Assembly (NCBI RefSeq): GCF_055900595.2
Contig: NZ_CM148325.1
DNA: 64,000 nt
Direction: 5' to 3' (one strand)
In this document: in pieces, positions 18,596-55,777 of the stretch
Layout: every line of letters begins with the position of its first letter
How positions within the stretch are numbered: the stretch's first letter is position 1
Position numbers and translations under genes: made by a program
The notes under the pieces: model-generated
Seen by the model: only the letters and a program-made list of their open reading frames with translations
Database searches by the model: none
Told to the model about the DNA's origin: nothing

Positions 18596-19925
18596 ACTGA
18601 TGAATCCCCTAATGATTTTTATCAAAATCATTAAGTTAAGGTAGATACACATCTTGTCATATGATCAAATGGTTTCGCCAAAAATCAATAATCAGACAAC
18701 AAAATGTGCGAACTCGATATTTTACACGACTCTCTTTACCAATTCTGCCCCGAATTACACTTAAAACGACTCAACAGCTTAACGTTGGCTTGCCACGCCT
18801 TACTTGACTGTAAAACTCTCACTCTTACCGAACTTGGCCGTAACCTGCCAACCAAAGCGAGAACAAAACATAACATCAAACGAATCGACCGATTGTTAGG
18901 TAATCGTCACCTCCACAAAGAGCGACTCGCTGTATACCGTTGGCATGCTAGCTTTATCTGTTCGGGCAATACGATGCCCATTGTACTTGTTGACTGGTCT
19001 GATATCCGTGAGCAAAAACGGCTTATGGTATTGCGAGCTTCAGTCGCACTACACGGTCGTTCTGTTACTCTTTATGAGAAAGCGTTCCCGCTTTCAGAGC
19101 AATGTTCAAAGAAAGCTCATGACCAATTTCTAGCCGACCTTGCGAGCATTCTACCGAGTAACACCACACCGCTCATTGTCAGTGATGCTGGCTTTAAAGT
19201 GCCATGGTATAAATCCGTTGAGAAGCTGGGTTGGTACTGGTTAAGTCGAGTAAGAGGAAAAGTACAATATGCAGACCTAGGAGCGGAAAACTGGAAACCT
19301 ATCAGCAACTTACATGATATGTCATCTAGTCACTCAAAGACTTTAGGCTATAAGAGGCTGACTAAAAGCAATCCAATCTCATGCCAAATTCTATTGTATA
19401 AATCTCGCTCTAAAGGCCGAAAAAATCAGCGCTCGACACGGACTCATTGTCACCACCCGTCACCTAAAATCTACTCAGCGTCGGCAAAGGAGCCATGGAT
19501 TCTAGCAACTAACTTACCTGTTGAAATTCGAACACCCAAACAACTTGTTAATATCTATTCGAAGCGAATGCAGATTGAAGAAACCTTCCGAGACTTGAAA
19601 AGTCCTGCCTACGGACTAGGCCTACGCCATAGCCGAACGAGCAGCTCAGAGCGTTTTGATATCATGCTGCTAATCGCCCTGATGCTTCAACTAACATGTT
19701 GGCTTGCGGGCGTTCATGCTCAGAAACAAGGTTGGGACAAGCACTTCCAGGCTAACACAGTCAGAAATCGAAACGTACTCTCAACAGTTCGCTTAGGCAT
19801 GGAAGTTTTGCGGCATTCTGGCTACACAATAACAAGGGAAGACTCACTCGTGGCTGCAACCCTGCTTACTCAAAATCTATTCACACATGGTTACGTTTTG
19901 GGGAAATTATGAGGGGATCTCTCAG
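18596..19925 (+). mobile_element. IS10 (IS4 family), copy 1
   Basis: Outside end CTGATGAATCCCCTAATGATTTT at 18596; inside end ...GGGGATCTCTCAG at 19925; flanked by 9-bp direct repeat CACCCAGTA (18587-18595 and 19926-19934). Confidence 0.95.
18704..19912 (+). CDS. IS10 transposase
   Basis: 402 aa; matches the Tn10/IS10 transposase sequence from memory. Confidence 0.95.
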   Translation: MCELDILHDSLYQFCPELHLKRLNSLTLACHALLDCKTLTLTELGRNLPTKARTKHNIKRIDRLLGNRHLHKERLAVYRWHASFICSGNTMPIVLVDWSDIREQKRLMVLRASVALHGRSVTLYEKAFPLSEQCSKKAHDQFLADLASILPSNTTPLIVSDAGFKVPWYKSVEKLGWYWLSRVRGKVQYADLGAENWKPISNLHDMSSSHSKTLGYKRLTKSNPISCQILLYKSRSKGRKNQRSTRTHCHHPSPKIYSASAKEPWILATNLPVEIRTPKQLVNIYSKRMQIEETFRDLKSPAYGLGLRHSRTSSSERFDIMLLIALMLQLTCWLAGVHAQKQGWDKHFQANTVRNRNVLSTVRLGMEVLRHSGYTITREDSLVAATLLTQNLFTHGYVLGKL

Positions 19926-25920: not shown

Positions 25921-26744
25921 AAAGGGAGATGAAAAAGGCAATAGCAGAACTGAGTGACAGTGAAACCATTCTGGCGTACAGGGTTGGATGGTGAAACTGA
26001 TAAAAAACCCTCTGAAAATTCTGTCAGAGGGTGTAGTCAAAAATGGTAGATATTTACGATGCAGTAATGCTTTCACTCCGGTAATTAATTTCCGTGATTA
26101 ACTGCTTTCGATCAATAAAGGAATTGCAAAAGTGTGATCTTGTTCACGACATCGTGGATGATAATATGCCTGATGTCTGAATCCGGAAACAGTGCTCTGG
26201 CGGGTTTCATGTGAAGTTGACGGATAAAAAATCCGCACGACCAGACAGACGTGCGGTTTACGAAATTCGTAACAAGAGGCTTTTCTACGGATCACGTGGT
26301 GCGTGCCACGTGAAATTTTTGTAGCGCAAAATGTGCAATGTGTAAATACAAGGAAGGAAAAAAGTTAAATTGGTAGAAGTCCATGCCTGCCACATGTACG
26401 TCTGCATTCCTCGTTTTGAACAGAATTCTCACCAGACATCGTGAATTTCTCATTCAATCATCAGAGATATTAACCAGGATTTTTATTGTTTTGTGATATC
26501 AGCAGTGCAGGTATACAGACGTTAAAGTAATCAGGTTTATTATAACCACCTTTACAAAGTTGTATATGTTTATAATTTAATGATTTTAATGCCAGTCGTT
26601 TTCTGCTGCTTAAATTGAGGTCGCATATTATACACAATAATATTCCTGGCATTATTAAATTAATAAAAGAGGATTCTTATCACTGTATTTTTGCTCCGCA
26701 CTACCGTTCTGGCTGGTGAAGTAATAATACAGGAGAATAACAGA

Positions 26745-28385
26745 ATGCTTAAAAGACGTGATGCTTTTTTAAAGAAAAGCGCGCTGGCAGTGAGTGTGGC
26801 CCTGCTGCTCTCGGCTCAGGCTCAGGCTGTTTTGACAGGGCCTGTTGATGCTAATTCTTCCAGCTTACTGATTGGAGAAAACTCTTTTATTACGAATTCA
26901 ACTGGTACAGCTAATAACACTTTCCTTTTGGGAGGTGGCGCTTTTAACATGGATTCACCAGGAAGTCTTCAGTTTGGCTCTTTTTCGGGAGTGTATAATT
27001 CTCCACACAGTGTCACCCTGGGAAGGGATGCCGGTCAGGCTGAGTCAAAATATGGTGTTGCCATAGGTAAGAGCGCTGAGGTACTTAATTCACAGCAGAG
27101 TGTTGCTATTGGGGGATGGGCTGGAATAGAAAATTCTTCAGGCTCTGTAGCTCTGGGCCATGGCTCACAGGTGTCGGGAGAAAATAACGTGGTATCTGTT
27201 GGTGCCGGGCCTGAGGGATATGGAGAGAGTGTCAAAGGAGCACCGGAAACCCGCCGGATTATAAATGTGTCTGATGGTATCAATAACACAGATGCAGCGA
27301 CGGTAGGGCAACTGAATGAACGATTTGATGATGCACAGGTCTTTTTGTTGCAGACGAATGAAAGAATTGACGAGACAGATAAACGTCTTTCAACAGTTCA
27401 TGCTGAACTCAGCAGGGATATTATTGCAGGCACATCGGCAGCGGTGACGTATACAGATGTAACAGCGCTTGCACTTCAGGATGAGATAAAGGATGGGACG
27501 AACAAAGTACGTGATGAGTTGAAATCACAGGGAGACAGTCTGCGTGGTGAGATAGGCGGTGTATACAGAGATGCCCGTGCTCATACTGACAGTCAGGTCA
27601 CAGCAGTACGTGATGAACTGAAGGCAGAGGGAGACAGTCTGCGCGGTGAGATAGGCGGTGTATACAGAGATGCCCGTGCTCATACTGACAGTCAGGTCAC
27701 AGCAGTACGTGATGAACTGAAGGCAGAGGGAGACAGTCTGCGCGGTGAGATAGGCGGTGTATACAGAGATGCCCGTGCTCATACTGACAGTCAGGTTACA
27801 GCAGTACGTGATGAACTCAGCAGGGATATTATTGCAGGCACATCGGCAGCGGTGGCGTATACGGATGCATCTTCTCTTGCTCTTCAGGATGAAATAAAAG
27901 AAAAAGCGGATGAAACAGTTCAGGTTTCCCGGGCTTATACAGATAAAAGTGTACGGGATGCCCGTAAAGAAGCGAAAAGCCAGGCAGAACATCTCAGCGA
28001 TGTGCTTGTGAAGAACAGGGCGCAGACGGATGCAGCAATAGCCTCAAATACAGCAGCGATAAGGAATAACAGTCATCGTCTGGATTTGACGGAAGCCTGG
28101 CAGAAGATGGCGACAGAGAGAATGAATAATATGCAGGAGCAGATTAAAGAGAACCGGAAGGAGTTAAGGGAGAGTGCAGCCCAGAGCGCGGCACTGGCAG
28201 GTCTTTTCCAGCCATACAGTGTTGGAAAATTTAACGCGACAGCAGCCGTTGGTGGTTACCGTGATGAGCAGGCCATTGCGGTGGGCGTGGGCTACCGTTT
28301 CACAGAGAATGTGGCAGGAAAAGTTGCAGTTGCTGCAGGTGGGTCATCCGCATCGTGGAATGCTGGTGTGAATTTTGAGTTCTGA
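26745..28385 (+). CDS. YadA-type trimeric autotransporter adhesin (Saa/Eib-like) with internal tandem repeats
   Basis: Signal peptide [28 protein letters not shown], head and coiled-coil stalk, C-terminal beta anchor ending [16 protein letters not shown] before ATG 26745; the track ORF begins at 26691. Confidence 0.75.
27511..27807 (+). repeat. Three tandem 99-bp in-frame repeats (33-aa units [33 protein letters not shown]) inside the adhesin stalk
   Basis: Period of 99 bp measured between 27511, 27610 and 27709; copies 2 and 3 are near-identical. Confidence 0.9.
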
Positions 28386-45938: not shown

Positions 45939-46817
45939 CTACAGATGTTGCTCTCTGGTTGTTGTACTAGTCGGGAGATCCTGTGGATCGACATTTTCCT
46001 TCGCGTGAGCATTGATGCTGGAAGCGGTAAACGTCAGGATGAATACAACCGTGAATAAGATAACAATCGTTGGTGCTGGTGCGCTGTCTATAAAAAAGGA
46101 GAGCCATACACCAGTCATTGAGACCATTACCGATATACCGAGCGCCAGCAGGAGCGCAATATGAAAGCGTTGCGTCAGGAGTACCGCAATGGCGCCAGGC
46201 GCAATGAGCAGAGAAATGGAGAGAATGATACCTACCGCTTTCAGCGTCGCCACAATGGTCAGAGAGACCATGCACAGCAGCCCATAATGCAGCCATCTCG
46301 TATGCAAACCGCTTACCTGCGCCTGTTGATAATCAAAGCTGAACAGCAAAAAATCCCGCCATTTTACGCTAATAACAAGTGTAACCAGCCCGGCAATAAT
46401 CACCGTCTGGATTATATCGCCGATGGTTACCCCGAGCATGTCGCCGAAAAGAATATGGTCAAGATGTACGTCGGGTTTGACTGCAATATACAAGATCAGA
46501 CCTGCGGCAAACATGCCAGAAAAAACAATCCCCATCACTGAATCTTGCTTGATTCGGCTGTTGTCTTTCAGGTATCCCGTCGCCACCGCGCAGAATACTC
46601 CGGCGACGAATGCTCCTCCCGCCAGAGGAAAACCCAGTATCCACGCAAGCACGATACCAGGAAAAACCGCATGACTCATCGCGTCTCCCATCAGTGCCCA
46701 ACCTTTCAGGACCAGAAAGACCGACAGCAGCGCACAGGGTATGGAAACTACCAGTGAAATCAGCAGTGCGTGACTCATAAAGGTGAACTGCAGTGGCTCC
46801 AGTAATAATGCCATCAT
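45939..46817 (-). CDS. sitD: Mn/Fe ABC transporter permease SitD
   Basis: 292-aa permease, last gene of a four-gene operon. Confidence 0.85.
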   Translation of the reverse strand: MMALLLEPLQFTFMSHALLISLVVSIPCALLSVFLVLKGWALMGDAMSHAVFPGIVLAWILGFPLAGGAFVAGVFCAVATGYLKDNSRIKQDSVMGIVFSGMFAAGLILYIAVKPDVHLDHILFGDMLGVTIGDIIQTVIIAGLVTLVISVKWRDFLLFSFDYQQAQVSGLHTRWLHYGLLCMVSLTIVATLKAVGIILSISLLIAPGAIAVLLTQRFHIALLLALGISVMVSMTGVWLSFFIDSAPAPTIVILFTVVFILTFTASSINAHAKENVDPQDLPTSTTTREQHL

Positions 46818-47671
46818 GAGCGATCCTCCAGCACCTTATGCGCACGCTGACGATTTGCCAAAAGCCCATGGGTGGGTGCAAAGACAAATGCTAAAAGAAA
46901 CAGCAGTGTCTGCGCCACCACGATGATTCCACCTGTCGCTCCGTCCAGAAAGTAACTGACCCACGCGCCGAGGAAACTGGTTACACTGCCAATAGTTACA
47001 GCAATCACGAGCAGGCGGGGAAAACGATCGGTTAACAACCATGCTGTTGCGCCAGGGGTCACTACCAGACAGATCACCAGAAAAGCCCCAACCGTTTGCA
47101 ATGCTGCAACGGTCGATACCGCCAGCAGTGTGAAGAAGAGGATTTTTAATCTTCCTGGATATAATCCAATAGCACGGGCGTGATTCTCGTCGAAAAAGGT
47201 CACCATAAGATCTTTCCATTTGAAAAAGAGCACTATGACTGAGACAATGCCAATGATAGTGAGTTGCAGGATATCCGCCGGAGCGATTGCCAGAATATTG
47301 CCCAGGACGATGGTCTGAATATTTACGGATGTCGGGTTTAATGACACCATAAACAGCCCCAGGCCAAAAAAGGACGAGAAGATCAGGCCGATGATGGCAT
47401 CTTCTTTTAAGCGAGTGCGTTGGTTAAGAAACAGCATGCTGCCCGCAGCCAGTCCACCGGAAAAGAAGGCCCCCAGAGAAAACGGAAGCCCCAGCATATA
47501 TGCCCCCGCAACACCCGGGACGATAGAGTGCGACAGCGCATCGCCAATCAGCGACCAGCCTTTTAGCATCAGATAGCATGACAGGAAAGCGCAGAGACCG
47601 CCGACCATCGCCGCGACCCACATCGCATTGAGCATATATTCATAGCTGAAGGGTTCCAGTAGCACGTTCAT
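46814..47671 (-). CDS. sitC: Mn/Fe ABC transporter permease SitC
   Basis: 285-aa permease; 4-bp overlaps with both neighbours. Confidence 0.85.
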
Positions 47672-48495
47672 CTTTCTTCCCTCTGCACCGCTGATGGTCG
47701 ATAAGCCACAAAGGGGCGTTCATCGTCAGTAATAATGCTTTCTTCCGAGCCTTTAAGTGTGACATGGCGTAGTACGCCGCTAAAAGCCAGCTCCAGGTTC
47801 TCGGCTGTAAAAGTGGTGTCTGTCGGCCCGCTTGCCAGGACGGTGCCTTTGACCATGACCGTATAATCGCAAAATGTCGTGACGGATCCGAGATTGTGCG
47901 TTGAGACAAGCATCGTTTTGCCTTCCGCGCGTAACTCCCTCAACAGGCTGATGATTTTGGCTTCGGTTTTCACATCAACGCCGGTAAAAGGTTCATCCAG
48001 CAGGATCACATCACCCTGCTGTGCAATCGCTCTCGCCAGAAAGACGCGTTTCTTTTGTCCACCGGAAAGCTCGCCGATTTGTCGATGGCGAAAATCTACC
48101 ATATCGACACGTTCCAGCGCATCGGTGACAACCTGACGATCCCTCTTATTGGCTATACGCAACATACCCATATGCCCATAGCGGCCCATCATCACCACAT
48201 CTTCCACCAGTACAGGAAAGGACCAGTCCACTTCTTCTGACTGCGGGACGTAGGCAATCAGGTTTTTCTGCAGAGCCTGCCGCGTGGGAATACCCAGAAC
48301 AGATATCTTTCCGGTAGTCAGACGCACGAATCCCATAATCGCTTTAAATAACGTCGATTTTCCGGAACCGTTTACCCCAACCAGAGCGGCAATAGATCCG
48401 CCTGGTACTGTGAAGGATGCATCGCGCAGTGCTGTGTGCCCGTTACGCCAGGTGACAGTAACGCCATTAACGACAATACCCGCAGATTGCATCAT
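47668..48495 (-). CDS. sitB: Mn/Fe ABC transporter ATP-binding protein SitB
   Basis: Walker [10 protein letters not shown] and LSGGQKKR signature. Confidence 0.9.
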
Positions 48496-49409
48496 TACTT
48501 CTCCCTTTTCCCGGCTTTAATTCCCTGCACCAGCGTACTGGTAGTAACCTTCAGAAGGTCGATATACGTAGGTACCGGGCCGTTTTCTGTGCTCAGGGAA
48601 TCGACATAGAGCACACCGCCGTAGTGTGCGCCGGTTTCACGCGCAACCTGACGCGCTGGTTTATCGGAAACCGTACTCTCACTAAATACCGCTGGGATAT
48701 TATTTTTCTTCACTATATCAACCACTTTACGTACCTGCTGGGGTGTTCCTTGTTGATCGGCATTTATCGGCCACAGATAAAGCTCTTTTAGCCCCAAATC
48801 GCGTGCGAGATAAGAAAAAGCCCCTTCACTGGTGACCATCCATCTTTTATTCTCAGGGAGTTCAGCAATCTGCTTACGCAGGGGGGCAAGGGTTTGGGTA
48901 ATCTTGGCTTTATAAGTATCGGCATTACGTTGGTATGTTTTTGCATTTGCCGGATCGTATTTTATCAACGCATCACGAATATTATCGACGTAAATCAAAG
49001 CATTATCTGGCGACATCCAGGCATGAGGGTTAGGTTTTCCCTCGTAGGGGCCTTCGGTGATCCCTACTGGCGTCACACCCGAAGAGACAATCACTTCTGG
49101 AACACCATTGAGATGCTGGTAAAAGCGCTGGAACCACAATTCCAGATTCATTCCATTGGCGAGAATCAGTTGTGCCCCCTGCGCACGTTTAATATCGCCA
49201 GGGGTAGGCTGATACTCATGAATTTCCGCACCGGGCTTGGTTATGGATGAGACTTCTGCAACATCTCCAGCCACGTTTTTGGCCATATCTGCGATGATGG
49301 TAAATGTTGTAATGACCTTGAATTTTTCAGTTGCACTCGCCTGAAATGCGATCGAGCAGGTGAGGGCGAGGAACCCCAAGAGCATGGTTAATTTTTTTAT
49401 TGAGTGCAT
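48495..49409 (-). CDS. sitA: Mn/Fe ABC transporter periplasmic binding protein SitA
   Basis: 304 aa with signal peptide; TroA/PsaA-type metal-binding family. Confidence 0.9.
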
Positions 49410-49643: not shown

Positions 49644-50790
49644 ATGAAGGGTAAAATTGTCTGCTGTGGAGCCTCTCAGATTTCCGGCATCATAGTGCCC
49701 AATACGGGATGCAAAAGCGCCCTCAGACTGGCGACTCCACAAATGAAATATACACCGGTTGGCGTTGATATCGCAAAGTATCTGATTCAGGTTCACTTCA
49801 TCAATGAGTACACGGGCGAAGTGGTGGACAAGCAGCTACGTAGCAAGGATTTTCTGACGTTCTTCAGCAACCGGGAACCCTGTCTGATAGGTATGGAGGC
49901 TTGTGGAGGCTCCCAACATTGGGCGAGGGAACTGGAAAAAACTGGGACACAAAGTTCGGCTGTTGCAAGCTCGCTTCGTTAAAGCATTCGTCATGGGCAA
50001 CAAAAATGATGTGATGGATGCGCGTGCTATCTGGATGGCGGTACAGCAGCCCAGTAAAGATATCGCTGTTAAAACGGAAGAGAAGCAGTCAGTTCTGGTC
50101 CTGCACCGTTCGCGCAGACAACTGGTGAAGTTCAGAACCTCGCATATTAATACCCTTGGCACGCTCCTCGAGTTTGGTGAAATCCTCCACAAAGATCGGA
50201 CAGCGATGGACAGAAAGCTACCGACAGCCCTAGAGCGAATGAAGACGAACCTGCCGCCGTATCTCATCACTGTGCTTGAATACCAGTACAACAGACTGAG
50301 TGAGCTGGGCATGCAGATAGATGGCCTTGATAAACAGATTAACAGCGTGGCACGGCAGAGCGAAAACTGTAAGCGCCTAATGGAAATCCCCGGTGTGGGG
50401 CCGTTAATCGCTACGGCGGTGGTCGCCACCATGGGCGAGGCCTCAGCATTTAAATCCGGACGTGAGTTTGACGCTTATGTCTGTCTGGTGCCGAAGCAGA
50501 CGGGGTCCGCTGGGAAGGTTCGCATGCTGGGGATAAGCAAACGTGGGGATACCTACCACCGGACATTATTTATCCATGGGGCAAGGGCGGCAGCATTGCT
50601 GACCAAAGAACCCGGCCCATGGATCACGGAGCTGAAAAAACGGCAGCCGACAGGTGTAATGCCGATCAGTTTAGGAGCAGTTGACCGATCCAGGGTCTGT
50701 TTAAGAATCCTGAAACGCTCACTCGTTTCCGGATTTTTGTGCACAGAAAACCCCCAGCTAGGCTGGGGGCCGGAAAGCTTTCAGCTTTGA
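49644..50790 (+). pseudogene. IS110-family transposase split into two frames
   Basis: ORFs 49644-49982 and 49903-50790 together resemble an IS110/IS1111-type transposase. Confidence 0.65.
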
Positions 50791-50879
50791 GCCAGTTATT
50801 AAAACCCCTTTTGATTTGTTAAAACACCTTGCGGTCTGGCAACTGCAAGTGTCAAACAAGAAATCAAAAGGGGGTCCCA

Positions 50880-51119
50880 ATGGGGAACGAAAAGAGCTTA
50901 GCGCATACCCGATGGAACTGTAAATATCACATAGTTTTTGCGCCAAAATACCGAAGAAAAGTGTTCTACAGAGAGAAGCGTAAAGCAACAGGCAGTATTT
51001 TGAGAAAGCTGTGTGAGTGGAAAAGTGTACGGATTCTTGAAGCTGAGTGCTGTGCAGATCATATCCATATGCTTGTGGAGATCCCGCCCAAAATGAGCGT
51101 ATCCGGCTTTATGGGATAG
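50880..51119 (+). pseudogene. IS200 TnpA (Y1 transposase) truncated at its 3' end by the IS256-like insertion
   Basis: MGNEKSLAHTRWNCKYHIVFAPKYRRKVFY... matches IS200 TnpA; the frame ends at the junction with IS256-derived sequence near 51120. Confidence 0.8.
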
Positions 51120-51850
51120 ACGGCATTAATCGCTTCCGGGAAGCCTTTCAGGCCGTCCACGAAGGCGATAAGGATATCGTTCAGGCCGCGATTTTTCAGT
51201 TCCGTCAGTACATTCAGCCAGAACTTTGCACCTTCATTTTCGGCCAGCCACATATCCAGCAGCTCTTTCTGACCGTCGGTATTGATGCCCAGCGCGAGGA
51301 ACACCGCTTTGTTAATGACACTCCCGCTGTGACGAACCTTAACCACAATACAGTCAAGATAAACAATGGGATACAGTGCATCCAACGGTCGGTTTTGCCA
51401 TTCAGAGACCTGTTCTTTAACCGCATCGGTCACTTTGGATATCAGCGTGGGCGAGACATCGGCGTCGTACATTTCTTTGAAGGCTGAGGTAATTTCGCGG
51501 GTAGTCATCCCTCTGGCATACAGCGCCAGGATCTGGTTGTCCATGCCGGTAATGCGGGTCTGATTTTTCTTCACCAGTTGTGGTTCGAAGGAACCATCAC
51601 GATCAGGTGGAGTACGTAATTCCATCGGCCCGTCGGTAGTGGTGACGGTTTTCGTGGAATAGCCATTACGGAAGTTGGTTCCCGATTTGGTCTGATTTTT
51701 TTCATGTCCCAGATGGTGAGTCAGTTCAGCGTTGAGAGCTGCCTCAACACTTATTTTCTTGAGCAGGCGATCGAACTGACTGAGATCTTCAGGGGTTTTG
51801 AGATTTTTGGCCAGTTCGTTAGCCAGAGCCTGCAATTGTGTGTCGTCCAT
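51059..51850 (-). pseudogene. IS256-family transposase, truncated copy
   Basis: 263 aa; 3' portion missing; 5' portion differs from the copy at 30426 while the rest is identical. Confidence 0.75.
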
Positions 51851-52139
51851 AATTTAGCTTTCATTTGATGTTGAATTGAACATATCAAAATCAGGCAATT
51901 ACATAAATCTATGTACAGGCTCAATGCCGGCGCTGGTATTGTAGAAATCAATCCTGCCCCTGATGTCGGAGATACTCTCGTTAACCTTCCTGATTGTATC
52001 CTCTGCTCAGTCAATGGGTTGCCAATGGGGGCACCCTTTCCTGACTGATTCGTCATTTCATTCTTATTGTATGTTACTGGCATTACACCAGTGCTGGCAT
52101 ACTTTCCTGCGTGTCTGCACCGGTTTGACAAAATTCAAC

Positions 52140-52500
52140 AGGGATAAAATAGTGCAGGAAACTGAAGCATTACTTGCAGAGCCGGGAGACATCCGGCGTT
52201 TTATTCAACAGGCAGTGGATCACTGGCCGCATTTTCTGATTGTCCACTTCACACACAATTCGACAGAAGGAAACATCAACGGACAACAGATTCATGCATT
52301 CTGAACTTCCTTTTATGAACGTATTACTGAACGTAATCACACTGACAGTCCATCCTCGCCGGTGGTATTACGCTGGTTGCGTGAACAACATGAAGGAACA
52401 ACAATACCTGTTGCTGCTCAGCCATGTGGTGGCATGCAGCGGCACTTTAAGCAGCACAGGGCACTTTGAACTGCTCCGGGAATCCTGGAGACTAAACTCC
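52140..52500 (+). pseudogene. Degraded copy of the YfjJ/Gp2-like gene seen at 23172-23720
   Basis: Broken frames translate to ...IRRFIQQAVDHWP...EGNINGQQIHAF, matching the gene at 23172. Confidence 0.6.
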
Positions 52501-52770
52501 CTGAGAAAGAGGTAAACAGGATGAGTATGATTCACAATTGGGGTAATTTGTTCCATTGCCTCAAATGCTGGCTGTACGCCACAGACTCTGCGTGTCTGGG
52601 TTAGCCAGTATGAGCGGGATACAGGGGCGCTTCACACATAACATTCCTTCTAATTTGCATAATTAATTACACTGATAGTCACATTCAATAACTATCATAA
52701 GCTATCATCTGGCTGACTGTTATTTCGCAACAGTTATTGAGTAAATCTTTAACCTGTTAACAGAGGGTTT

Positions 52771-53295
52771 ATGAAACGTAAACTTATTGCCTTTGTGATT
52801 CTGGCTACATCATCCTGTGGATATGCAGCCACCAAAGATGTAACAATGAATCTTGTTGATAGTGACGGAAAAGAGCGAAATATTGGTAAAATAACCATCC
52901 AGAAGACACCCTACGGGCTGCTGTTCACCCCTGATCTTCACTCCTTACCCGCCGGCATTCATGGTTTTCATGTACATGAAAACGCAAGTTGTGCTCCTGC
53001 CCTGAAAGATGGAAAAACTGTCGCTGCTTTATCTGCAGGTGGTCACTTTGACCCGGAAAAAACAGGGAAGCATCTCGGTCCATGGTCTCCTGATGGCCAC
53101 CTAGGTGATCTCCCTGCGCTTTATGTCACTCATGACGGAAAAGCAACCTACCCGGTGCTTGCGCCAAGACTATCTGAATTAAAGGAGCTCGATGGCCGTT
53201 CGCTAATGCTCCACGCAGGAGGTGATAATCATGATGACCATCCTGAACCTCTAGGTGGCGGTGGTGCAAGAATTGCCTGTGGTATCATCCCATAA
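52771..53295 (+). CDS. sodC: Periplasmic Cu/Zn superoxide dismutase (horizontally acquired SodC paralog)
   Basis: 174 aa with signal peptide and Cu/Zn SOD motifs ([24 protein letters not shown]); clearly diverged from K-12 SodC as remembered. Confidence 0.85.
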
Positions 53296-53423
53296 TCAAT
53301 CAGGTAAGGGATATCCTCCCTTACCCTTAATCTTCCCTGGCGGCATGTGCATATCTTTCAGTTACTGTGAGATACCTGTATTACGGTGTCTTTTTAGCTC
53401 ACAGAAATATCAGACAGCCCGTT

Positions 53424-53648
53424 TCAGTGTTTTATTACCTTAATCTTTTTACGGCATTCTTCAGCTCTTGCGCATGCTATTTTTTCACCTGTTTCATAAC
53501 ATTGCTGGCAGCCTAATCCAAATTTCATCGCCATATCATAACCTTCCCGAAAACCTCGGAACCACGCGTTACGAAGGTATTCATCATATTCCCCGTAGTC
53601 AATAATAACCATTTTATTTTCATGGGATTTTCCGGTATTCTCACTCAT
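53424..53648 (-). CDS. Small hypothetical Cys-containing protein (74 aa)
   Basis: Start at ATG 53646-53648 with GAGGT upstream; the track ORF extends to 53783; AT-rich region. Confidence 0.35.
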   Translation of the reverse strand: MSENTGKSHENKMVIIDYGEYDEYLRNAWFRGFREGYDMAMKFGLGCQQCYETGEKIACARAEECRKKIKVIKH

Positions 53649-54489
53649 TTTCGATACCTCAATGCTTACAACAGAAAAGTATACTTTTACGAAGTTCGCC
53701 TTTGCAGGACTATATAAAGTTATCACTGGATGCAAGAGCCGGAAATCATGTATATCAGGATCAACTTTGTAATTCAATAACATATTATCCAGTGAAAAAG
53801 TAAGTATATTTAAGCTGGGGAAGGAGAAGGGGGACTTAATTTGATATTTTCATCAATAATATTATTTTACCTCCTCCATTATTCATTCAGGCCTGGTTCC
53901 GGGCGTAATTCCGATTTCTCTGTTGAAGCGATGCATTTATATTTAAATATTCACCTGTCATTGAATTTTATTTGAAATAGGAGAAAATCTCCTCCTGTAC
54001 TACAGATAACCCGGAATGTTCCTCGAAAGAAAATTCTGGCGCAGAATTCACGCCCGGTTCTGTTCAACATCATGCAGGATAACGATACCGAAACGTTAAA
54101 CTCTGGCAATTCTCGTGTTATACACAGGCAGGAGTGATTACTACGGTAAGAATTGCTGAAAAGGGGAGAACACTGAAGGCCTTATTCGCGAAGAATAAAG
54201 GAGACATTTCATGTAAATTATTATCAGAGATAACCTTCTCCAGGCGCTTTTGTTCGCTTCCTGAATTGCTACCTGATACATATTTACGGGATGCCAGCCT
54301 GGTGACTATAACTCCGAAAAGACCGATTATTGTATTGCGTGCATCCGGCATGTTTACAATGTACGCTGGTATCTAACGGAGTCTGACACAGATGCACGCA
54401 GGTGTATATTTTAACGTAATTATCCGGAAGGAACAGTATATTTTAATGCGGGAGTTGCATGAGCGGTATACGGGAGAAACTATCAGACC

Positions 54490-55250
<761 letters not shown>

Positions 55251-55777
55251 CTAACGATGAGAAACCCAACAATCCCATCGGGTGTGACGGTGGAGTGATC
55301 CTACCCACGTAATGTGGACACGGCCCTAAGCGAGATTATGGTTTTCAAATTGTTCCGGGCTGAGACCGCCACAGGCACTGTGACGACGCCAGCGATTGTA
55401 ATCACACTCGATATAATTAAACACCGTTGCCCGCATTATTTCCCGGCTGCTAAAGCGTTCCCCGTGGATACATTCCACCTTCAGCGAATGAAAGAAGCTT
55501 TCCACACAGGCATTGTCATAACAGTAGCCTTTCGCACTCATACTGCCACGCAGGTTGTGTCGCTTCAGCAGCGCCTGATAATCCCCTGAACAGTATTGAC
55601 CACCACGGTCCGTATGAGCAATGACGCTTTCCGGGCGTCTTCTCCGCCACAACGCCATTTGCCGTGCATCACAGGCCAGTTGTGCTGTCATTCGCGGTGA
55701 CATCGACCAGCCAATGACGGCGCGTGACCACAGGTCGATGACTACTGTGAGATACAACCAGCCCTCATCGGTACGCA

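Follow-up and report, generated by a model that had tools for sequence, protein, structure and literature searches.

A second, mobile-clade sodC and a convergent orphan gene in a probable foreign block of an IS-riddled Escherichia coli iuc-sit virulence island

Background

Is the Cu,Zn superoxide dismutase gene (sodC) that lies among insertion sequence (IS) remnants in an E. coli virulence island the genome's ordinary sodC, a leftover of a prophage, or an additional copy that travels by other means, and what is the small cysteine-containing gene beside it? The question arises from a 64,000-nucleotide stretch of DNA (hereafter the window), for which an initial annotation, made from the letters alone, had reported a diverged periplasmic sodC and a 74-aa open reading frame (ORF) nearby, both of which exist at the positions given in Table 1.

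Extra phage-type SodC enzymes are established fitness or virulence factors in Salmonella, and in EHEC the phage-type SodC proteins are better enzymes than core SodC. Two of them, SodC-F1 and SodC-F2, were characterised by D'Orazio et al. 2008 (PMC2569942) as dimeric enzymes with about three times the activity of core SodC and a thermal stability about 10-14 °C higher, resistant to proteinase K and chelators, produced independently of RpoS during log phase and under anaerobic conditions, and enriched in intracellular bacteria. They are also partly membrane-associated, their leader, which has an AASC lipobox and a signal peptidase I site following residue 20, being processed by signal peptidase I or II, and the same study already noted an extra sodC-F-like copy in strain SMS-3-5 (PMC2569942).

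Here, we consider it very likely that the locus is a 1.2-kb foreign block (~52629-53820) within an IS-riddled iuc-sit virulence island, composed of a second sodC cassette of the mobile clade and a convergent orphan gene, which we call orf74. The island SodC is a member of an already characterised clade, new only in its setting outside phage DNA and in its association with the iuc-sit island and poultry plasmids; orf74 is the unexplored part of the locus. Our literature search found no dedicated study of this island sodC in APEC or ST117 contexts.

Results and discussion

A complete Cu,Zn superoxide dismutase precursor

The 174-aa product of the island gene scored 111.3 bits against Pfam PF00080 Sod_Cu (cutoff 28.9) and 218.4 bits against the NCBIfam SodC equivalog NF007628 (cutoff 165; K-12 SodC reaches 365), and its strongest library match, at 299 bits, was the phage moron family phrog_1975. 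The top PDB sequence matches were to Salmonella SodCI (1eqw, 6d52), with E. coli SodC (1eso) behind. Across a 34-sequence SodC alignment, which takes in K-12 SodC and SodCI, residues H67, H69, H92, H101, H110, D113, H148, C74, C170, and R167 were invariant; we take H67, H69, and H148 to be the Cu ligands, H92 the bridging His, H101, H110, and D113 the Zn ligands, C74-C170 the intrasubunit disulfide pair, and R167 the active-site Arg. The gene is under purifying selection, with dN/dS of 0.09 against the Klebsiella copy and 0.09-0.12 overall.

By inspection, the leader comprises a KRK n-region, a hydrophobic core, and a GYA/A site, and in the alignment it matches the SodC-F leader (AASC-GYA/A) as well as the leaders of exported homologues. 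The motifs YGLLFTP and GPW/Y-xxxG are present in the island SodC, SodCI, and SodCIII, and absent from monomeric core SodC. From the equivalent leader and these clade motifs, we infer a stable dimer, periplasmic or membrane-tethered, that would scavenge exogenous superoxide. The GC3 values of sodC and orf74 are 0.35 and 0.33, respectively, and such low values in both genes fit a common foreign origin.

Table 1. Features of the sodC-orf74 block and its surroundings (positions in the window)
Feature	Position	Strand	Basis and remarks
iucA-D/iutA aerobactin genes	34040..43349	+	RefSeq annotation of NZ_CP054368.1
sitABCD iron/manganese ABC transporter	45939..49409	-	RefSeq annotation of NZ_CP054368.1
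IS110, IS200/IS605, and IS256 transposase remnants between sit and sodC	49903..51850		RefSeq annotation
Weak IS3-type HTH fragment abutting the left edge of the block	~52540-52628		HTH_Tnp_1 E = 0.006, below threshold
Conserved sodC upstream region, presumed promoter/operator	52629..52770	+	84.5% identical to Klebsiella copy
sodC-like gene, mobile SodC-F/SodCI clade	52771..53295	+	ORF listing and raw sequence; complete 174-aa precursor of a Cu,Zn superoxide dismutase, predicted to be periplasmic
Putative signal peptide of island SodC	52771..52830	+	By inspection; TSSC16-GYA19/A20, GYA fits a signal peptidase I cut, TSSC is lipobox-like
Hairpin GGTAAGGGA-TATCC-TCCCTTACC, likely terminator	53303..53325		Between convergent sodC and orf74; weak T tracts on both strands
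orf74, 74-aa (8.7 kDa) hydrophilic, presumably cytoplasmic protein, orphan family	53424..53648	-	RefSeq WP_001470144.1, 'hypothetical protein'
orf74 upstream region	53649..53820	-	78% identical to Klebsiella, then homology lost; conserved block ends at ~53820
IS3-family transposase remnants right of the block	54574..55757		Annotation; ORFs 54876-55217 and 55326-55757 with IS3-like translations
Group II intron reverse-transcriptase/maturase pseudogene downstream of the sodC block	56150-57391	-	
Intact PAPS-reductase/DUF3440 and IbrB-like (ParB-like) pair, ibrA/ibrB-like, downstream of the sodC block	60503-62358	+	

Relationship to core and mobile SodC proteins

The impression conveyed by the initial annotation, that this protein is clearly different from K-12 SodC, is borne out by an amino acid identity of 57%, and identity rises through Gifsy-2 SodCI (61%), Fels-1 SodCIII (62%), a metagenome copy (71%), and the SodC proteins of EHEC and other lambdoid prophages (80-82%) to a Klebsiella pneumoniae copy (91%), with the SodC of Serratia and Pseudomonas (~65%) as the nearest chromosomal species-level relatives. 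A phylogeny of the paralogs had been proposed as a check on the resemblance to phage- or island-borne sodC genes, and it upholds that resemblance: in a neighbour-joining (NJ) tree the island SodC groups within the mobile clade, alongside EHEC prophage SodC, the Klebsiella copy, and Fels-1 SodCIII, apart from K-12 SodC, and the phage moron family is the best library match. Its sequence thus places the island SodC as a member of the mobile SodC-F/SodCI/SodCIII clade. Within E. coli, the gene's nearest relatives are flanked by lambdoid tail genes (gpI-like and gpJ), an arrangement also seen for sodCI and sodCIII, and a prophage sodC paralog about 76-78% nucleotide-identical to it was found in a further 571 records.

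The closest characterised relatives are SodC-F1 and SodC-F2 of E. coli O157:H7 lambdoid prophages, with which the island SodC shares, besides the clade and an identity of 80-82% in amino acids and about 76% in nucleotides, a Cys-containing leader with GYA/A, a homologous upstream region and terminator stem, and coexistence with core sodC. It differs from them in being one residue shorter (and 20% diverged from SodC-F1), in being accompanied by orf74, in lying outside a prophage tail module, within an IS-bounded 1.2-kb block of the iuc-sit island, and in occurring truncated on plasmids. Salmonella SodCI (Gifsy-2) and SodCIII (Fels-1) are likewise horizontally acquired second Cu,Zn superoxide dismutases with motifs in common, but are only 61-62% identical to the island SodC and are both phage-borne. 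Regulation of sodCI is by PhoPQ; no PhoP-box-like repeat was seen by eye at the island sodC. Core E. coli SodC (b1646) and Salmonella SodCII share family, ligands, length, and, presumably, periplasmic location with the island protein, whereas b1646, apart from its low identity, is monomeric, RpoS-dependent, and located at ydhF-ydhK.

Stress genes were also seen near other mobile-clade sodC copies, namely katG in the metagenome contig that also has an orf74 homologue, orf75 (contig L012, 2177-4348), and, in Salmonella, a ScsC-type thioredoxin gene near the sodC of a TraX-bearing, plasmid-like contig (contig L018, 1197-1982).

An additional gene, not a substitute for core sodC

A 1.3-kb sodC-orf74 block was present, at an identity of at least 99%, in 125 of the 5426 complete E. 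coli genomes (2.3%); the copies were nearly all chromosomal, and many of the source isolates came from chickens. The core K-12-type sodC (at least 95% nucleotide identity) was present in 5425/5426 complete E. coli genomes. Coexistence of the two was assessed with a chimeric query, the block plus K-12 sodC, compared with the block alone, for the 60 carriers listed of the 125, and every one of these 60 gained one extra match on the same chromosome (e.g., from 1 to 2 matches in SCU-115 and from 2 to 3 in NZ_CP033635.1). Since core and island sodC thus share one chromosome in 60/60 listed carriers, the island gene is a true second copy, additional to core sodC and not replacing it. The search for the canonical gene that the initial annotation had advised found it almost everywhere, and the reading under which its proposal would have fallen, a sole sodC orthologous to the core gene, does not describe a genome in which both coexist at 57% identity.

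The island and its other carriers

The surroundings were annotated from the RefSeq genome NZ_CP054368.1 (strain SCU-115), which is 99.9% identical to the window over 31261-64000 save one IS. This annotation corroborates the earlier description of a gene set among IS remnants and adjoining iron and manganese uptake genes, namely sitABCD, iucA-D/iutA, and remnants of IS110, IS200/605, IS256, and IS3 elements. No phage genes were annotated within ~20 kb on either side of the sodC block, and sodC is encoded outside a prophage here.

In the window, as in SCU-115, the island comes after ynjB (6540-7709), and its edge lies at 7700-8000. Strain SMS-3-5 (NC_010498.1) carries the same sodC allele at 3,245,951-3,246,475 with 99.8% nucleotide identity to the window's gene, so the extra copy already noted in 2008 is this allele. 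There, the iuc-sit-sodC module falls inside GI-pheV, an island of 92 kb as delimited in PMC11537424 (compare NC_010498.1 3,197,159-3,289,098). The two locations of the module, in GI-pheV in SMS-3-5 and after ynjB in the window and SCU-115, suggest that a large segment was rearranged or that the module integrated at a second site.

In poultry E. coli and E. albertii, the block is also found on six plasmids, of IncF and other types, in a form reduced to 52707-53519, at 99.8% identity: CP099079.1 (2892-3704), NZ_CP070298.1, NZ_CP130159.1, CP070400.1, NZ_CP070294.1, and NZ_CP119581.2. Here the block is cut by an IS3 element inside orf74 and lacks most of that gene, along with some of the conserved sequence upstream of sodC; carriage of sodC without an intact orf74 indicates that orf74 is dispensable for it. 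The IncF plasmids with the truncated block are described as conjugative. Plasmid searches with the Klebsiella and metagenome contigs found no further context.

Elsewhere, an IS5 element lies inside the 1.3-kb block in some carriers (NZ_AP038236.1, NZ_CP087290.1 of APEC 102026, and NZ_CP134389.1), and in SMS-3-5 an IS2 (NC_010498.1 3,246,929-3,248,157) lies ~450 bp upstream of sodC. These insertions point to continuing IS traffic around the cassette.

A probable foreign block with a proposed promoter-gene-terminator cassette

Alignment to the Klebsiella contig delimits a homologous block of ~52629-53820, with homology stopping abruptly at ~52628. Within it, nucleotide identity is 84.5% upstream of sodC, 88.6% in sodC, 76% in the spacer, 86% in orf74, and 78% upstream of orf74, and outside the block it is about 40%. 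Pieces of the sodC upstream region (130 bp) are also kept in the prophage and metagenome copies. Neither a promoter scan, which was not above chance, nor a regex search gave a convincing sigma-70 promoter upstream of sodC. The hairpin between the two convergent genes is terminator-like on both strands (-14.4 kcal/mol on the plus and -19.8 kcal/mol on the minus strand; z-score -3.4); its stem is kept in the Klebsiella copy, and its GGTAAGGG...CCC core is kept in the prophage cassettes. Two prophage loci, when aligned to the block, match it in parts of the 130-bp upstream region and in the terminator stem (GGTAAGGG...CCCTTACC), and lose homology directly after the hairpin, which points to a relocated moron cassette of promoter, gene, and terminator.

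These observations bear on two other accounts of the gene. The view that a rearrangement has merely placed the genome's usual sodC, or a diverged ortholog, in this region deserves hardly any credence: the score of the island gene does pass the NCBIfam SodC equivalog cutoff and RefSeq does name it sodC, but the near-universal core gene, found on the same chromosome in all 60 listed carriers, the 57% identity to that gene, the occurrence in 2.3% of genomes, and the grouping with the mobile clade all argue for a separate gene. Somewhat less remote, though improbable, is that sodC is a prophage moron still residing in a decayed lambdoid prophage, as sodC-F, sodCI, and sodCIII reside in prophages. 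Such an origin would account for the position of all its nearest E. coli relatives between prophage tail genes, for the homology of its upstream region and terminator to those of prophages, and for the PHROG match as the strongest library score; yet the neighbours over ~20 kb are IS remnants, sit, iuc, a group II intron, and ibrAB-like genes rather than phage genes, the homology to prophage loci stops at the cassette borders, the Klebsiella and metagenome copies are likewise outside phage contexts, and orf74 is without a phage homologue. A cassette relocated into a foreign block of the island remains our preferred explanation for sodC.

orf74 as an orphan protein-coding gene

The second gene of the block was described in the initial annotation as having no recognisable family and lying in very AT-rich DNA. 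Both descriptions stand: no match was found in Pfam (to E 10), NCBIfam, or PHROG, and GC content is 0.34-0.39 over 53400-54000 (0.39 in orf74 itself) against 0.50 for the whole window. Relatives are few. A word-indexed search with single sequence and profile gave 7-8 matches among 5.8 billion proteins, exhaustive phmmer gave 5 among 1.84 billion cluster representatives, and no match was found in 100,044 species-representative genomes (GTDB) or in viral contigs; over all protein, genome, viral, and plasmid tblastn searches, relatives were confined to E. coli, Klebsiella, and one metagenome lineage. A 382-aa repeat protein, P0129, was treated as a spurious relative on account of its seven low-identity repeats.

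The Klebsiella homologue (74 aa, 81% identity) and the metagenome homologue orf75 (75 aa, 57-65% identity) both keep frame and length. Substitutions are biased towards synonymous sites, with pN/pS of 0.097/0.33 against Klebsiella (Fisher p = 3e-4) and 0.24/0.88 against the metagenome copy (p = 1e-13), and the orf74 frame is the sole frame open in both the E. coli and Klebsiella copies. Judged by this pattern of sequence change, orf74 is a real protein-coding gene under purifying selection. In E. coli the same frame can also be read over 119 aa (to 53783); in Klebsiella an indel of 1 bp disrupts this longer version, and the form given in RefSeq is the 74-aa one. By inspection, 8 nt separate a conserved GAGG Shine-Dalgarno sequence from the ATG, and the gene is preceded by a promoter-like element, TTGAAT-N17-TATACA (-35 at 53777-53772, -10 at 53754-53749), which is below the scanner threshold; the pattern TTGAAT-N17-TA(T/G)A(C/A)A recurs in 3/3 homologous orf74 loci.

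The protein has cysteines at C47, C50, C59, and C65, of which the C47-x-x-C50 pair and C65 are invariant among homologues. AlphaFold reached a pLDDT of 46 from the single sequence, and AlphaFold2 with a 4-sequence alignment reached 79, with helices at 18-42 and 47-73, so that orf74 is predicted to form a helical hairpin with a conserved CxxC. A Foldseek search of this model against the PDB returned nothing at E <= 0.001 (best E 2.1).

Three candidate identities were rejected. Ribosome modulation factor (RMF, PF04957) resembles orf74 in a short R-x-x-W-x-x-G-[FW]-R-E string and in being a small helical protein, and hhalign gave it a probability of 7% over 13 columns, with no Pfam match. By inspection, a ZAS-type HxxxCxxC motif and twin-CX9C hairpins are contradicted by a helix 1 without Cys and by the lack of a His four residues before C47.

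Linkage of orf74 to mobile-clade sodC

All three full-length orf74 homologue types lie within ~0.75 kb of a mobile-clade sodC, a count that covers two or three independent lineages. The genes are convergent in the E. coli island and in the Klebsiella contig, where the pair adjoins a FecCD-type ABC transporter; in the metagenome contig, orf75 and sodC are divergent, with an IS3 remnant between them and katG downstream. The linkage is real. Prophage sodC copies are without orf74, and with so few lineages, and with plasmid and prophage sodC genes that do without it, a functional tie can be put forward only as a hypothesis.

How, then, should orf74 be read? It is quite improbable that it is a chance ORF in an AT-rich spacer, or a decaying remnant, and not a gene. 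The ORF is indeed short, GC-poor, and without a family, its single-sequence AlphaFold model is poor, and the flanking non-coding DNA is also 76-78% conserved against Klebsiella, but chance would hardly preserve length and frame in two other lineages at 81% and 57-65% amino acid identity, with a strong synonymous excess in both comparisons, no other frame open, a conserved Shine-Dalgarno sequence, and a core that is confidently predicted once four sequences are used. Granting a real gene, we put even chances on its being a mere hitch-hiking neighbour from the donor genome with no functional tie to SodC, and regard hitch-hiking and functional coupling as about equally likely. The convergent arrangement with a hairpin between the genes, which are therefore transcribed separately, the plasmid and prophage sodC genes without an intact orf74, and the changed relative orientation in the metagenome contig, with its intervening IS3 remnant, are what hitch-hiking would lead one to expect; against it, the linkage holds in every full-length homologue type and has outlasted both synonymous-site saturation and a rearrangement, and the third locus adds katG, another oxidative-stress gene. 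A specific form of coupling, which we offer tentatively and think rather unlikely as it stands, is that orf74 is an unrecognised partner of mobile Cu,Zn superoxide dismutases, a cytoplasmic CxxC hairpin that may sense redox state or metal and control sodC or support oxidative-stress defence, co-inherited with the sodC lineage and lying beside katG in one locus.

Proposed function and significance

Taken as a relocated cassette, the sodC unit would be self-contained, with its own promoter, gene, and terminator, and its product would be a second periplasmic Cu,Zn superoxide dismutase. By analogy with SodC-F1, to which it is 80% identical, the island SodC is probably a dimeric, protease-resistant, and highly active enzyme; its leader may allow export to either a soluble periplasmic or a lipid-anchored form, and its expression is probably RpoS-independent and growth-phase-independent. 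Such an enzyme would convert extracellular superoxide, e.g., from phagocytes, to H2O2 and O2 in the periplasm, and would add to the action of core SodC, a monomeric stationary-phase enzyme that this genome has retained. The orf74 product, we would guess, is an accessory or regulatory protein that depends on a thiol or a metal and was inherited along with the sodC lineage.

The allele suggests that the sodC cassette has left prophages; it is now carried alongside siderophore genes and Mn/Fe uptake genes in islands (GI-pheV in SMS-3-5), as well as on poultry-associated plasmids of E. coli and E. albertii. Since it is present in ~2% of complete E. coli genomes, with chickens the source of many, it could plausibly mark extraintestinal and avian fitness or contribute to it. 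The island sodC further provides a natural case for asking whether SodC-F-type properties matter outside EHEC, and orf74 is a small, cheap knockout target.

Other features of the window

An Rfam scan of 51800-55000 gave only a sub-threshold match to the Hfq-binding sRNA isrC, at 54565-54647 on the plus strand and at the start of the IS3 remnant (30.8 bits against a gathering cutoff of 39; E = 6e-4). Two 1.3-kb IS copies, absent from SCU-115, lie in inverted orientation at 36118-37440 (ORF 36125-37333, minus strand) and 18597-19925 (ORF 18704-19912, plus strand), each encoding a 402-aa DDE_Tnp_1 transposase of equal length and Pfam score. With iucB interrupted by one copy ~350 bp from its start, the window's strain probably lacks an active aerobactin operon; in addition, the iucD ORF stops short (39789-41066), and the annotations of SCU-115 and SMS-3-5 mark iucD as frameshifted. 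In both the window and SCU-115, the island starts after ynjB with a CP4-44-like module (DUF4942, cbtA/yeeU, antirestriction, DUF932). At 26691-28385 (plus strand), a 564-aa Eib-like trimeric autotransporter with a YadA anchor is encoded, whose central part (26829-27604) differs from SCU-115, where the Eib-like gene is followed by a sigma-factor-like HTH gene.
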